Assembly (NCBI GenBank): GCA_963737905.1
Contig: CAVTUQ010000038.1
Span: 32,001-96,000 of the forward strand
DNA from: an uncultured delta proteobacterium
Lineage (GTDB): Bacteria; Desulfobacterota; Binatia; UBA9968
Direction of reading: 5' to 3'
Length of the DNA: 64,000 bases
Below are positions 6,357 to 11,343 of this stretch, piece after piece. The number at the start of each line of letters is the position of its first letter. Position 1 is the first letter of the stretch. A program made the position numbers and the translations under genes. The notes under the pieces were generated by a model that searched no databases, was not told where the DNA came from, and was given only the letters and a program-made list of their open reading frames with translations.

Positions 6357-7403
6357 CTAATCAGCGAGCAGTTTTTTCACCCGGTCAGTGACCTCTCGAG
6401 GCTGATCCATAATCTCCCTCAGTAGAGCTTGGAGGTCTTCGCCGGTTGACGGATCCATATCCATTCGGCCTTTATTGGCCTCCGCTATCAGCTCAGGATC
6501 TCTCATAGCCTTTGCGTAGGCCTCGCGCAGAACCCTTACTCGATCCGCTGGAGTTCCGGGAGCAGCAACCATGGGGCGACCAAAGTCTCCGGCGGCCAGG
6601 ATGACACGTGTCAGCCGGCGCCCCACATCGGGAGTTTTGTATTGATCCATCAATTCGAAAAGCGTAGGCGTATCTGCCAATCTCGGGTCCCGTTTTGGAC
6701 CGCCTTGAAGGATATGGCGGTCAAAACCATTCTTGTGCCAAGTATCAAACGGTTCGCGGCCGAAGTGGGGTGGAATGTCCATGCCCCGGCATACGATCTC
6801 GCCGCGTTCCACGGCCACATCGATCTCACTGCCGCCTGGATAACCGGTCACCGTCTGGAGCTTGGCCTTTAAATTTTCTTCCATAAGTTTGGCCAAGAGA
6901 TAGCCGGTGCTGGCGGTTCCCGTTGCCCCACACTTGGGCGGCTCACTCGCCTTGATGATATCGCCGATAGATTTATAGGGCGAGTCCGCTCGAAAATAGA
7001 GCATGACCGGAGCTTTTTCCTGGGTGCCGATCCATTCGAATTTGCGCACATCGAATTGGACTTCTTTCCGTTCTACGAGTTGATCCAGATACAGGCTGTT
7101 GATCGGTACGAGCAACGTCAATCCATCTCCCTTGGAAACGTTGTAGACATAGTTCGCTGCAATCACAGAGCTGGCTCCCGGCATATTCTGCACGATGATC
7201 TCCGGATTACCCGGGATATATTTCGGCATATAGCGGGCAAGCAGGCGCGCCCAGCGGTCATAAAAACCTCCGGGCGTAAAACCCACTACGATACGAATGG
7301 TTTTGCCCTGATAGAAGGCTTGCGCTTGGGCGTTTGCTGCGGGCTCGCCGGCGAGGGAGATGACGAGCACAGCGATCAGGATCGACAAACCTCTTTGCCA
7401 CAT
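6357..7403 (-). CDS. Tripartite tricarboxylate transporter substrate-binding protein (TctC/Bug family)
   Basis: Signal peptide; IRIVVGFTPGGFYD, IVQNMPGA, GYPGGSEIDVAVERGE, APGTP. Confidence 0.9.
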   Translation of the reverse strand: MWQRGLSILIAVLVISLAGEPAANAQAQAFYQGKTIRIVVGFTPGGFYDRWARLLARYMPKYIPGNPEIIVQNMPGASSVIAANYVYNVSKGDGLTLLVPINSLYLDQLVERKEVQFDVRKFEWIGTQEKAPVMLYFRADSPYKSIGDIIKASEPPKCGATGTASTGYLLAKLMEENLKAKLQTVTGYPGGSEIDVAVERGEIVCRGMDIPPHFGREPFDTWHKNGFDRHILQGGPKRDPRLADTPTLFELMDQYKTPDVGRRLTRVILAAGDFGRPMVAAPGTPADRVRVLREAYAKAMRDPELIAEANKGRMDMDPSTGEDLQALLREIMDQPREVTDRVKKLLAD

Positions 7404-7539
7404 AACGGTCTCCTTGCGAGTTGTTCAGGGCTTCTTACAACAGCCCGTGATCAGAACGCAACGGCCCAAAAAAATCCGAAGTCGGAAGCCCCAGCCCATC
7501 GAAATTTTCGATTTGTCGTCGCTGTTGTGGTTCCCTGAT

Positions 7540-8115
7540 TCAATCCTCGATATACTCCGGCACAGCTTGCTTTTTAGCGACCGCGCCCGCCATGTTGGCA
7601 AGTCTGACCGGGCTGGGTCGTCGCTGCGCCATTTTCGATTGGAATCTCCACCGAACGATTCCCTCCGCGTCGAGGAGGTACGTCGTTGCGTGCACCATCG
7701 GACCGCTCCAGTGATGCTCGCGAGCCGCTCCGACTTTTTCGCTCAATGTACACTCGGGATCGCTGATGAGCCGCAACGGAAAGACGCTCTTGGGATCTTG
7801 CCAAAAAGCGTCGTGTGCCTTGTGAGCGATCTGATCGAATTGGGCATCGCGAATAATCCGTTCGCGGAGTTGCCGGCCATTTTCCGCTGATTGCGGGCTA
7901 ATCCCGAAGATGGCGACGTTGTGTTCCCTGAATCTTTCGTACTCATAGATAAAGGCCGCGACCTGGGCCCGACACCAAGGTCACCATTGTCCCCGGTAGA
8001 AGAAAACGATGGAGGCCGGCGCCTTATTAAAGACCGATGGAAACTCGATCGCATCTCCATCGATATCCCGCAGGGTTACGGCGGGAAATTTTGCTCCGAT
8101 ATCTAAAAGTGCCAT
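7540..8115 (-). CDS. AhpC/TSA peroxiredoxin-like selenoprotein (UxxC), 191 aa, in-frame TGA at 7983-7981
   Basis: Manual translation: MALLDIGAKFPAVTLRDIDG...IVFFYRGQW-TGA-PWCRAQV...VAIFGISPQ...LISDP...TYLLDAEGIVRW. One frame throughout; AAAGGAAG RBS; SECIS-like hairpin after the TGA. Confidence 0.9.
7953..7970 (-). promoter_or_regulatory. Candidate bacterial SECIS element
   Basis: GGGCCCAGGUCGCGGCCU starts 11 nt after UGA. GGCC/GGCC stem; apical CAGGUC resembles the E. coli fdhF SECIS loop. Confidence 0.7.
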
Positions 8116-8425
8116 TGTTTCTTCCTTTCACTCAGTCCGCCGTTGAGATTTGAGGCACGAGCTCTTCTCTTCATCATTTTCTGACCAGGAGACCCAGCCG
8201 CAACGCATTGAGGTTAAAATAGGGCAGGGCAAGCACGGACGTCAAGCCAGATTCGCAGGAGTTCCAATGCGATAGTTAAAAATAAAGCACCTAACCCCCG
8301 CCGGTTCATCGGCAATCACCCGCTTCAGAAAGCCTGGATTGATGACAAATACCTTGTGTCCGACGGGTTCCACCCTTCTTCAGCCAGGAATTGACAAGGA
8401 AAAATATTATGATATTGGATAGCTC

Positions 8426-8761
8426 ATGGTTTTAGCTCGAAAGAATGCAGTGGTTGGTTTTAAAATAGTTTTATTTTTAGTTTTTGCCATTTTCGCTCTG
8501 TCGCTGCAGTTTGAACCTAACGGGTTTCCCGTATCGACCGGGATTTTTTCCGTCAAGCAGATCAATCTAACAACGGTTTTGCCGCAGCAAAAATCCAGGG
8601 TCGAACTTGCTTCAATCGCCGACGCGAAAAATCAAAGCCCAAAACTTAAGCCGTATTTTTTGCGGATTGATTACAAGCAAAACCTTTTGGTCTGGCCCGT
8701 CGTGGCCGGTAATCTAACCCGCTCACCGCCATACATCGCTCCTTTCCAGTCGCTTTCATAA
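8426..8761 (+). CDS. Small membrane/secreted protein with a near-C-terminal RSPP motif (possible arrest/leader peptide)
   Basis: N-terminal hydrophobic segment KIVLFLVFAIFALSL; C-terminal NLTRSPP; TTGACA at 8391 upstream. Confidence 0.5.
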   Translation: MVLARKNAVVGFKIVLFLVFAIFALSLQFEPNGFPVSTGIFSVKQINLTTVLPQQKSRVELASIADAKNQSPKLKPYFLRIDYKQNLLVWPVVAGNLTRSPPYIAPFQSLS

Positions 8762-8879
8762 ACATAGCTTTCCGGCGGCTTGGTTTTTTCCGATAGCCCG
8801 CGCGGGAGGTCTACCCCACGCTTATTTGTGCGGCGGGAACCTCACACGCGTTTGAAAGATCGGGAACGCATCAGGCAAT

Positions 8880-9380
8880 TTGCCTTTATTCAAAACACGA
8901 CAGGCGTGTGGCACTTTGGATCAATGGACCGCATATAGTGGACAGGAATTTCAAGGGGGTGCAATCGTGCTTCGTCGAAGTGAACTAAGCTTAGAAGAAC
9001 ATGGAAATTCTTTGCTCCAACTGGATCATCTTATGCCGAGTCAGTTCTCTGACACGTTGCGCAGGAATACTTATCTAGAGCCGGAGAGGGTGCTTATGCT
9101 TGCGGTTCTGGAAGACGCAATCTACTGCGTGCAGAAGCACGCGACATGCGCACGAGGAAGAAACCGGAGATTGTTTGATGAGACGATCAATTGGGTGCGA
9201 GCGGAAAATGATGAGTGGTTCTTTTCGTTCGAGAACGTGTGCGACACGGTCGGTTTGAATGCCAGCCGTCTCCGTCACAGCTTGCTCGAAATGGTCGCCG
9301 GCAGATATCCGGTCAAGCGGATCACTTTATACTCACCGGCGCATGGTCATCGATCCGGAGAGCTTCGAGCCAGAGGATAG
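8880..9380 (+). CDS. Conserved hypothetical protein (true start probably later, e.g. GTG 8967)
   Basis: PERVLMLAVLEDAIYC...W...FSFENVCDTVGL resembles a recurrent small uncharacterised family. Confidence 0.65.
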   Translation: MPLFKTRQACGTLDQWTAYSGQEFQGGAIVLRRSELSLEEHGNSLLQLDHLMPSQFSDTLRRNTYLEPERVLMLAVLEDAIYCVQKHATCARGRNRRLFDETINWVRAENDEWFFSFENVCDTVGLNASRLRHSLLEMVAGRYPVKRITLYSPAHGHRSGELRARG

Positions 9381-9411: not shown

Positions 9412-11343
9412 TTGGTTGGGGCATCGGCACGCGCCCAACTCCATGAGCATATAGTGACGCCTTTCGCTCCCATCCGCTACCTCGAAGGTTATCTGCCGAT
9501 TGAAGACCACGGTTTGATCGGTGACGGTACCACGGCTGCGCTGATTGGCCGTGATGGAGCGATCGCGTGGCTGTGCGTTCCACGGTTCGATTCGGCTCCT
9601 TTGTTCTGCCGAATTCTGGATTTCAAACGCGGCGGCGCTTTCACTCTGGCGCCCAAGGGTTTGAGTGAATCCCGCCAATTTTACGAACCCGATACGGGAG
9701 TGCTGGTCACTGAGATGCGCTGCCCGTCGGGAGTCGTTCGTTTGACCGACGCGTTGTCACTGCGCTCCGGAGCAGATCTGAGCGAGGACGTTCCAGCGGG
9801 CCGATCTGAACTGGCGCGCTCGGCGCGGGTGGTGGAAGGTCGCGTGCGCCTAAGGATCGAGATCGAGCCCAGGGGTGGCGCGCGCGTGGGCGCTCATGGG
9901 GAAGGGTTTCGGTTACGTTGTCCGTCGCGTCCCGACGTTGAGCTGCACCTTCATGCCAAGGGTCCCCGACCCGTGCCAAGTTTGAAGGATCTGATTGAGC
10001 TAAACGCCGGCGAGCGATTCGAATTGACCCTGCGGTGGGGCGCTCGGCTTTCCAGTCATAGCTATATTTTCCCGGAAGAGCTGCTGCGCGAAACCATCGA
10101 GGCGTGGCATCGTTGGATGCGCCAGTTCCATTATGAAGGCCCCGAAGAAGCGCTTGTGCGCCGGTCGGCGATCACCCTTAAGCTCCTCGATTATACTCCC
10201 AACGGAGCGATTGTAGCGGCGCCGACTTCGTCGCTTCCCGAAGTGATCGGCGGTTCGCGCAACTGGGATTATCGCTATGCATGGATTCGTGATGCCGCAT
10301 TTTCCGTCTACGCGCTGCGGCGCATCGGCTTTAACCAGGAAGCGGACCGTTTTCTCGGTTGGGTTCTCGACGCTGTCGAGCGGGGAGGAGCACCGAAGGT
10401 GCTTTATGATTTGGATGGACAGCAGCCCCGGCCCGAGCGGATAGATCCGGAACTCGAAGGTTATCGACGTTCTGCTCCCGTCCGCTGGGGTAATGCGGCG
10501 GTAGAGCAATTGCAGCATGATGTCTATGGAGAGATTCTCGACTGCGCGTATCAATGGGGCGCTCATGGAGGCGCAATCGACAGTGTCTTATGGCAAAGGC
10601 TGAGAACGCTCGCCGAAGGCTCGCGGCTGGCATGGAGCAAACCGGATCATGGCATCTGGGAGGTTCGCACAGCGGCCAGGCCGTTTACCTATTCTGCGGC
10701 GCTCTGCCAGGTGGCGCTGGATCGGGGCGCGCGCCTGGCCGAGCGCTTCAGCCTGCCGGGAGACGTCAAAGTTTGGCAAGCGGCATCGAATCAAATTCGC
10801 AACGCGATCCTTAACGAAGCTTGGGACGAGTGTCTGCAATCTCTGACCGAACATCTCGGCGGCGGCAAGCTCGACGCAAGTTTGCTGTCGTTGCCGATTC
10901 GCCGGGTCATCCCCGCGACACATCCCAGGATGGTCGCCACCGCGTCCGCTATTGCGAGCGGGTTGAGCGCAGGCAAGGGGCTGCTGTACCGCTATCTGCC
11001 CGAGGAGTCGCCGGACGGACTCCCCGGGCATGACGGCGCATTCCTGCTATGCAGTTTTTGGTTGGTCGATAATCTAGCCCACCAGGGCCGGTTGGATGAG
11101 GCGTTGGCGCTGTACGGCTCGCTGTGCGCTCGCACCGGCTCGTTGGGATTGCTTCCTGAAGAAATCGATCCCGGCAGCGGGGCTTTTCTCGGCAACTATC
11201 CACAGGCATTCAGCCATATCGGAGTCATTTCGAGCGGCGTTCACCTTGCTCGACTGATGAAGAAAGCGACTGCGGAGATGCGGTGGGCTCCACAGGGCCT
11301 CAATAAAGCGCTTGCTGGCGGCCAAAATGTGCGCGCCCAGTAA
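9412..11343 (+). CDS. Glycoside hydrolase family 15 (trehalase/glucoamylase-like)
   Basis: IEDHGLIGD, AAPTSSLPE, RNWDYRYAWIRD, GIWEVR, LLPEEID, GNYPQAFSH. Confidence 0.92.
   Translation: MVGASARAQLHEHIVTPFAPIRYLEGYLPIEDHGLIGDGTTAALIGRDGAIAWLCVPRFDSAPLFCRILDFKRGGAFTLAPKGLSESRQFYEPDTGVLVTEMRCPSGVVRLTDALSLRSGADLSEDVPAGRSELARSARVVEGRVRLRIEIEPRGGARVGAHGEGFRLRCPSRPDVELHLHAKGPRPVPSLKDLIELNAGERFELTLRWGARLSSHSYIFPEELLRETIEAWHRWMRQFHYEGPEEALVRRSAITLKLLDYTPNGAIVAAPTSSLPEVIGGSRNWDYRYAWIRDAAFSVYALRRIGFNQEADRFLGWVLDAVERGGAPKVLYDLDGQQPRPERIDPELEGYRRSAPVRWGNAAVEQLQHDVYGEILDCAYQWGAHGGAIDSVLWQRLRTLAEGSRLAWSKPDHGIWEVRTAARPFTYSAALCQVALDRGARLAERFSLPGDVKVWQAASNQIRNAILNEAWDECLQSLTEHLGGGKLDASLLSLPIRRVIPATHPRMVATASAIASGLSAGKGLLYRYLPEESPDGLPGHDGAFLLCSFWLVDNLAHQGRLDEALALYGSLCARTGSLGLLPEEIDPGSGAFLGNYPQAFSHIGVISSGVHLARLMKKATAEMRWAPQGLNKALAGGQNVRAQ

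Follow-up and report, generated by a model that had tools for sequence, protein, structure and literature searches.

Inspection of a 64,000-nucleotide (nt) stretch of DNA from an uncultured delta proteobacterium (assembly GCA_963737905.1, contig CAVTUQ010000038.1, positions 32,001 to 96,000; hereafter the window) revealed a minus-strand gene that very probably encodes a small peroxiredoxin-like redox protein with selenocysteine (Sec) at an in-frame TGA. The complete coding sequence (7540-8115) comprises 191 codons and a stop, starting with ATG at 8115 and ending with TGA at 7542-7540. Its frame contains a single internal TGA (7981-7983, codon 45), in the context FYRGQW-U-PWC. The residue read there as Sec on the basis of ortholog conservation (U45, motif W-U-P-W-C) is followed by Cys48 (7972-7974), the second residue of a UxxC centre, which was placed by profile alignment to the PDB entries 2cx3 and 3hjp and occupies a near-invariant column. 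The region in front of the gene (8118-8130, minus strand) contains a ribosome-binding sequence, AGGAAG, about 8 nt upstream of the ATG. It also carries an in-frame TGA 12 nt upstream of the ATG, so the start can lie no further upstream than 8115.

Most of this gene is hidden in the plain list of open reading frames (ORFs), which gives only a 44-amino acid (aa) N-terminal piece (7981-8115) and a 78-aa C-terminal piece (7540-7776). The 78-aa piece and the continuous frame through codon 45 had been noted in the first-pass annotation of the window, and both are read directly from the sequence. Pfam assigns the 191-aa read-through product to the family AhpC-TSA (3.7e-20; 72.5 bits, cut-off 26) over residues 6-156, a span that includes the TGA codon, and more weakly to the family Redoxin. 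Its interpretation as a hidden AhpC/TSA-like selenoprotein is supported by comparative, structural and genomic evidence, and we consider it highly probable that 7540-8115 is one intact, unannotated gene in which the UGA at codon 45 is decoded as Sec.

Conservation and translation across the in-frame TGA

The gene is present in 37 of the 123 genomes of the order. An in-frame TGA was found in 40 of the 41 matching places in these genomes, the remaining one being a C-terminal fragment that stops short of codon 45. The 31 orthologous loci extracted for alignment all carry the TGA at the same position, within the reading U-P-W-C-R-A-Q-V. Two of them (L052 and L064) and some of the tallied genomes are flagged as unpublished, and the conclusions are the same without them. 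Recurrence in every orthologous locus examined confirms that the TGA and its flanks are more than a chance occurrence. Screening of about 185,000 species genomes with a sequence pattern yielded 43 loci, 29 close and 14 distant. All 29 close loci (42-88% identity) carry the TGA; they belong to metagenome-assembled genomes titled Candidatus Binatia or bearing older labels, e.g. 'Deltaproteobacteria bacterium'. No match at 1e-25 was obtained in 400 other genomes, sampled evenly from 255 genera of the phylum.

The 14 distant loci (Bacteroidota, 22-34% identity) have TGC or TGT at the aligned codon in 13 cases and GAT in one, and TGG in none. The first-pass annotation had proposed a search for Cys-containing homologues aligned at the TGA and had named Trp at this position as a finding against its reading. 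Four full-length distant relatives likewise have Cys aligned under the Sec, with the motif WCPxC in three (P0049, P0059 and P0067) and WCPxS in one (P0046). The TGA at codon 45 is almost certainly a Sec codon. The sole Cys form of the clade that was seen, P0040, is a 91-aa metagenomic fragment of the short-insert type described below, derived from one contig of 3157 nt and reading WCPWCRAQV.

The simplest alternative, a sequencing or assembly error replacing TGC or TGT, is extremely improbable. Nothing was found in its favour, and the same codon occurs in 31 independently assembled loci. Moreover, contigs from four independent metagenome studies cover codon 45, and no difference between 7928 and 8022 is among the differences listed for them, a listing that does not include 8 lesser ones. 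Reads with TGC or TGT at 7981-7983 were among the findings named in the first-pass annotation as overturning its proposal; these contigs keep the TGA.

The TGA could also be a true stop within a split or decaying gene, whose products would be a 44-aa peptide and perhaps a C-terminal fragment made separately. Such decay does occur in relatives: one copy (L035/L097, genome G022) has a TAG in the hairpin region (UPWCRA-stop-VT), in another (L036, G014) a deletion has removed the whole UPWC motif, and a third (L037, G025) contains extra TGA and TAG stops. Codon-position analysis points the other way. It was performed on 29 intact orthologs spanning 18 genera, leaving out L026 and L027, which carry a frameshift and a second TGA with an extended C-terminus, respectively. 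In codons 1-44, 24, 19 and 57% of the pairwise differences fall at codon positions 1, 2 and 3, and 53-60% of those in the downstream segments fall at position 3, compared with an even 33/33/34 distribution in the 45 nt that precede the start. The part of the gene before the TGA therefore evolves as coding sequence, and both halves are under the same constraint in one frame in all of these orthologs. Furthermore, the interrupting codon is in every case a TGA at the catalytic position, and a C-terminal fragment would, in the predicted structure, lack strands 1-3 and the active site.

Database entries could also be taken to favour a true stop, as all of them are C-terminal fragments of 105-128 aa or N-terminal stubs. 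A word-indexed protein search gave 35 matches, of which 34 are 105-128 aa long, the best covering the C-terminal 55-66% of the query; the 35th (P0036, 230 aa) covers only 22% of it. In an exhaustive HMMER search of 1.84 billion representatives, every match below 1e-18, one 91-aa fragment apart, is either a piece of the C-terminal part or an N-terminal stub that ends at residues 44-47. The C-terminal entries start at the residue aligned with V67, which in this genome is encoded by GTC and is not a start codon. This is the fragment pattern that gene callers produce when a whole family contains an internal stop. Taken together, these observations make a true stop improbable, and a single gene translated through codon 45 remains the preferred reading.

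The clade is in consequence systematically mis-annotated: in databases of 5.8 and 1.84 billion proteins it occurs only as N- or C-terminal fragments, some of them named 'peroxiredoxin', and its active-site half is therefore invisible to protein-based surveys. No RNA runs are listed among the 22 sequencing runs that hold the sequence, which has no bearing either way on expression.

In relatives, the gene seems to be lost by decay and not by replacement of Sec with Cys. The long-insert copy L027 (G027:C2:322601-323173) contains a further in-frame TGA at codon 30, where the TGA is not conserved. It also shows the changes Y40F and R41C and a 45-aa C-terminal extension, and it holds the only compensatory change in the hairpin described in the next section. 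This copy may be decaying or may possess a second recoding site.

The hairpin downstream of codon 45

The candidate Sec insertion sequence (SECIS) element is a small hairpin at 7953-7970 (minus strand), i.e. +11 to +28 after the UGA, preceded by a 10-nt spacer. It consists of a 5-bp stem formed by GGGCC (+11 to +15) and GGCCU (+24 to +28), and an 8-nt loop, CAGGUCGC, that contains GGU. The hexamer CAGGUC occupies +16 to +21, and both it and the start of the stem lie where the first-pass annotation had placed them. The loop consensus across the orthologs is CAGGUSRC.

The same +11 to +28 hairpin was found independently as the RNAalifold consensus of the orthologs. Its pairing partners are compatible in 99.3% of 140 cells, compared with 23.6-78.6% after displacement of the 3′ partners by 1-3 columns, and none of the 28 distinct sequences has a bulge in the paired 5′ arm GGGCC. 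Third codon positions within the stem (+12, +15, +24 and +27) and the loop G at +18 are nearly fixed. Variation is unrestricted at positions +3 and +9 of the spacer and, within the long-insert group, at +21. Codons 49-54, which encode the hairpin, rank first among the 176 six-codon windows of the gene, with an identical-codon fraction of 0.91 compared with 0.48 gene-wide. This synonymous constraint, controlled within the gene, is a stronger argument for the hairpin than covariation.

Several observations weigh against the assignment of this element. Covariation is weak: there is one compensatory swap (in L027, with both changes synonymous) and one mismatch (in L024), and 35 of 500 shuffles do as well. 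The signal consists mostly of invariance and overlaps the invariant peptide R-A-Q-V-A/T-A. Folding of the single sequence with RNAfold favours another structure, in which the UGA lies inside a stem; with z = -0.67 this fold is no more stable than expected, and 40 of 200 shuffles equal it. A scan of 7400-8300 against Rfam at E <= 10 gave only a chance miRNA-like match and no SECIS family. The bulged U of the best-known bacterial element, discussed below, is absent. The +11 to +28 hairpin is singled out by comparative analysis alone. The minimum free energy fold of the single sequence was rejected as the conserved element: pairing is kept in 81.8% of its cells, and of its base pairs one is broken in 23 and another in 25 of the 28 distinct sequences.

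The first-pass annotation called the hairpin similar to the SECIS of Escherichia coli fdhF. That element is described as a 17-nt upper stem-loop located 11 nt from the UGA, with a bulged U17 and with G23/U24 in the loop (PMC8659212). Both are small intra-coding stem-loops that begin soon after the UGA (at +11 here and +12 in fdhF) and have similar lengths (18 and 17 nt). Counted from the U of the UGA, the GGU lies at 21-23, 1 nt nearer to the UGA than G23/U24 of fdhF. Unlike fdhF, the Binatia hairpin has no bulged U on its 5′ arm, a feature that according to the same source is needed by the E. coli SelB protein (PMC8659212), and the 40-nt extended lower helix is not conserved, the alternative fold that pairs the UGA being the one rejected above. 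The term fdhF-like is only approximate; it is fair for the position, the GGU loop and the overall architecture, but not for the SelB contacts.

Selenocysteine machinery and the decoding of UGA

The first-pass annotation named the genes selA, selB, selC and selD as those to be expected in a genome that decodes Sec. Three of them were identified in the assembly that contains the window (G000), in one cluster on the minus strand (C29:70925-75696), each scoring above its curated cut-off (selA, 606.9 bits; selB, 409.8 bits; selD, 381.4 bits). The selD gene carries an in-frame TGA of its own, in the context AAG-U-AAKLG. The fourth, selC, encoding tRNA-Sec, was not found. Across the order, selA is present in 110 of the 123 genomes and tRNA-Sec in 89 (51 of the 58 high-quality genomes), its sequence being nearly identical across three families. 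Comparison of the genome lists by hand showed tRNA-Sec in 28 of the 37 genomes that bear the selenoprotein gene; the nine without it are 67-93% complete. The order as a whole thus appears, from its gene content, to decode Sec.

The lack of a tRNA-Sec gene in G000 is the main weak point of the proposal, as it leaves one of the four Sec genes unaccounted for. Rfam models did not detect it in the assembly (the best matches were Leu and Ser tRNAs, the highest being a tRNA-Leu at 46.6 bits), nor was it among the 44 tRNAs called by ARAGORN. A nhmmer profile built from the nearly identical tRNA-Sec genes of seven relatives, one of them from an unpublished genome, gave no match in the assembly either. 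There is no tRNA gene in or beside the selA-selB-selD cluster. A possible location was suggested by another genome of the same genus, in which tRNA-Sec lies at G002:C86:4094-4188 (L049). Its flank maps near 106.7 kb of contig C10 of G000, and the synteny of the two genomes breaks exactly at the tRNA-Sec. The syntenic site lies inside C10 and not at a contig end.

Nothing resembling tRNA-Sec is present at the syntenic site or elsewhere in the assembly. Lowering the ARAGORN thresholds produced noise, with one candidate among 222 calls (ps90) and many among 5,536 (ps80). In some lineages selC is reported to be embedded in selB (PMC13188914); of the selC loci of the seven relatives, SelB matched only at L048, where it lies on the other strand at the far end of the locus, about 1.3 kb from selC, and so does not enclose it. 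With the assembly at 87.5% completeness and 6.7% contamination, the tRNA-Sec gene is not proven absent. We take the gap to be a loss during assembly or binning.

Without Sec, the TGA could be read through by a near-cognate tRNA (Trp or Cys) or by low-level suppression, the hairpin serving to slow the ribosome or release factor 2. The missing tRNA-Sec gene fits this explanation, and so does a hairpin without the bulged U described for fdhF (PMC8659212). Against it stand the intact selA, selB and Sec-type selD genes of the same genome, and the presence of tRNA-Sec in most gene-bearing genomes and in the same genus. TGA is moreover the stop codon used most often in this organism: of 515 long frames on three contigs, 206 end with it, as does the selenoprotein gene itself. 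The same count rules out a reassigned genetic code, TGA being an ordinary stop. Finally, the strict retention of TGA in all 31 loci, with neither TGC/TGT nor TGG in its place, would be hard to explain if the product contained Cys or Trp. We therefore regard selenium-free read-through as unlikely, though a little less so than a true stop, and favour the decoding of codon 45 as Sec.

On this basis we infer the following course of events. SelB-GTP carrying Sec-tRNA(Sec) would bind the hairpin that starts 11 nt downstream of the UGA and would deliver Sec in place of termination. The product would be a cytoplasmic protein of 191 residues, in which no signal peptide was detected, and U45 and C48 would form its UxxC redox centre where helix 1 begins. 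By analogy with the family, the U45 selenolate most likely attacks a disulfide or peroxide substrate, and C48 most likely resolves the intermediate, giving a selenenylsulfide. A cellular thiol reductant would then regenerate the centre.

Fold, paralogs and place among known selenoproteins

An AlphaFold2 model built on a 15-sequence alignment reached a mean predicted local distance difference test (pLDDT) score of 85.9 and a predicted template modelling score (pTM) of 0.86. The closest folds are peroxiredoxins of the BCP/PrxQ type, the best PDB match being Bcp4 (3hjp; TM-score 0.89 on the target). Profile searches with the sequence returned the same group (3hjp at 1.9e-18, then 2cx3 and 2ywn), followed by ResA. 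The resemblance to BCP/PrxQ proteins (3hjp, 3drn, 2cx3 and 2ywn) extends to both sequence profile (1.9e-18 to 2.4e-16) and fold (TM-score 0.82-0.89 on the target), but identity is only 17-21% and the active site differs. C48, in its near-invariant column, aligns with the peroxidatic Cys (FSPVC in 2cx3; PxxxT/SxxC), and Sec45 takes the place of the Thr/Ser of the T/SxxC motif, in a column where the relatives have Cys. The catalytic Arg (AKRAVFIV in 2cx3) is replaced by Ala142, and by Pro in the short-insert form and in relatives.

Since the Thr/Ser and Arg of the peroxiredoxin triad are both replaced, the protein is not a canonical peroxiredoxin. Its residues make a thiol:disulfide oxidoreductase or an atypical peroxidase more likely, and the model presents a thioredoxin-style UxxC centre on a peroxiredoxin scaffold. 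A comparable motif, of the type FYRGxWCPxC, characterizes the PRX_like2 group (CDD cd02970): its second Cys stands at the peroxidatic position of peroxiredoxins, and the other residues of the triad are missing. A review lists a selenoprotein form of cd02970 with UxxS (PMC13188914, Table 1). By description, the gene studied here thus differs from the peroxiredoxin-like group (cd02970; eukaryotic PRXL2/SelU) in having UxxC instead of the listed UxxS.

The first-pass annotation had drawn attention to an insert of about 25 aa before LISDP and suggested that the subfamily bearing it may be undescribed. The insert region (about residues 87-111, RIIRDAQFDQIAHKAHDAFWQDPKS; 7783-7857, minus strand) was delimited by alignment and is modelled with lower confidence. 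In comparison with the insert-free proteins P0049 and P0067, about 23 residues are indeed added before FPLRLISDP. In the model they lie between helix 2 and the next strand, making up the C-terminal portion of helix 77-93 together with two short helices (pLDDT 61-67 for residues 91-110). The insert is not peculiar to Sec forms: about 13 extra residues occur in the same region of P0046, P0059 and the short-insert paralog, the long form being 9 aa longer than the latter. It is a part of variable length in the wider family of Cys-containing proteins and no mark of the Sec forms.

Two paralogous forms of the clade could be distinguished, a short-insert form (25 loci) and a long-insert form (6 loci, including the gene studied here), which coexist in the genomes G486 and G033. 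The short-insert paralog closes a conserved same-strand cluster (L029:1-1413 and 24 other loci). A gene for a molybdenum-cofactor-binding hydroxylase subunit (Pfam MoCoBD_2) lies upstream in the same orientation in 20 of its 25 loci, and in 11 of the 25 an OsmC-like gene separates the two. This arrangement suggests a role in peroxide or redox protection beside a molybdenum oxidoreductase. Neither the hydroxylase subunit nor an OsmC-like gene neighbours the long-insert form in any of its six loci.

Prx-like thiol:disulfide oxidoreductase selenoproteins were reportedly predicted as a family by Kryukov and Gladyshev in 2004. Selenoprotein families are told apart by their domain and Sec motif, and the combination of pfam00578 with UxxC or UxxU defines the Prx-like thiol:disulfide oxidoreductase family (PMC9312934, PMC13188914); a Global Ocean Sampling (GOS) survey tabulated 225 such proteins as 'Prx-like 1' (pfam00578, UxxC; PMC2398784, Table 2). 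By this naming rule the gene belongs to the known family, having a pfam00578 domain and a UxxC motif with Sec in the first position (U45-P-W-C48), and it fits there by domain and motif; the published representative of the family is WP_010940744.1. It further shares with the family, as the latter is described in these sources, the character of a predicted redox selenoprotein with widespread Cys homologs. It differs in forming a clade that has a 13-23 aa insert, was found in a single order and is almost uniformly Sec-containing.

The suggestion of an undescribed subfamily therefore holds in part. The gene falls into a known family, but no NCBIfam model matches the 191-aa product at its cut-off and the clade is represented in databases by fragments only. 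Full-text literature searches on selenocysteine in Binatota and selenoproteins in Binatia brought up no report, the one matching paper doing so in its reference list only, although supplementary sequence lists might hold members. The WUPWCRAQV clade was found in one order only (Candidatus Binatia-type MAGs), and in genomes it uniformly contains Sec. This is mildly unusual, since Cys homologs are stated to far outnumber Sec forms in most thiol-oxidoreductase selenoprotein families (PMC1794560). The clade thus offers a contrasting case, in which Sec and not Cys is the stable state of a thiol oxidoreductase.

We tentatively hypothesize that the WUPWCRAQV proteins constitute a distinct Sec-dependent Prx-like subfamily, found in one order only, that has retained Sec in 18 or more genera of Binatia, largely from soil and freshwater, and has hardly ever reverted to Cys. 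Its two paralogs might have different jobs, the short-insert form being tied to the molybdenum hydroxylase and OsmC-like peroxidase, and the free-standing long-insert form perhaps using its extra helical insert to recognise a new substrate or partner. No new mechanism is involved, as the decoding is textbook and the family is known; the finding is of value for annotation and for what it adds to the selenoproteome of an uncultured lineage.

The gene directly downstream (6357-7403, minus strand) encodes a TctC-family receptor (Pfam, 4.1e-13), as the first-pass annotation had noted. This adjacency is shared only with the genome of the same genus (2 of the 6 long-insert loci), and between the stop of the selenoprotein gene and the TctC gene there is a terminator-like hairpin with a T-run behind it (7476-7494, minus strand). 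TctC was accordingly rejected as a functional partner, and its position is incidental. The hairpin suggests that the selenoprotein gene is monocistronic; terminator-like hairpins are weak predictors here (2 found, 1.6 expected). A promoter-like site (8216-8245, minus strand; TTGACG, 18 nt, TATTTT) was identified by consensus match only, and is equally weak evidence, with 2 such sites found and 1.0 expected in shuffles. The roughly 750 nt upstream of the gene (8130-8880) contain no convincing ORF. Between this region and a GH15/trehalase-like gene (9412-11343) there is a 166-aa ORF without a Pfam match (8880-9380, plus strand).

Four more AhpC/TSA-like genes with an in-frame TGA were identified in the same genome, with YRGxW-U-xx-C motifs and each followed by a small hairpin of its own. 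These redoxin candidates have the motifs UPFC (G000 C4:122344-122793, plus strand), UPYC (C4:133982-134230, plus strand), UPYC (C44:26388-26642, plus strand) and UGKC (C39:105294-105506, minus strand). The product of the gene studied here shares only 25-30% identity with the other UxxC redoxin paralogs of its genome. Together with the Sec-type selD, these at least four additional candidates add to the evidence for an uncultured lineage that looks rich in selenoproteins. Similar TGA-bearing redoxin paralogs occur in many of its relatives.

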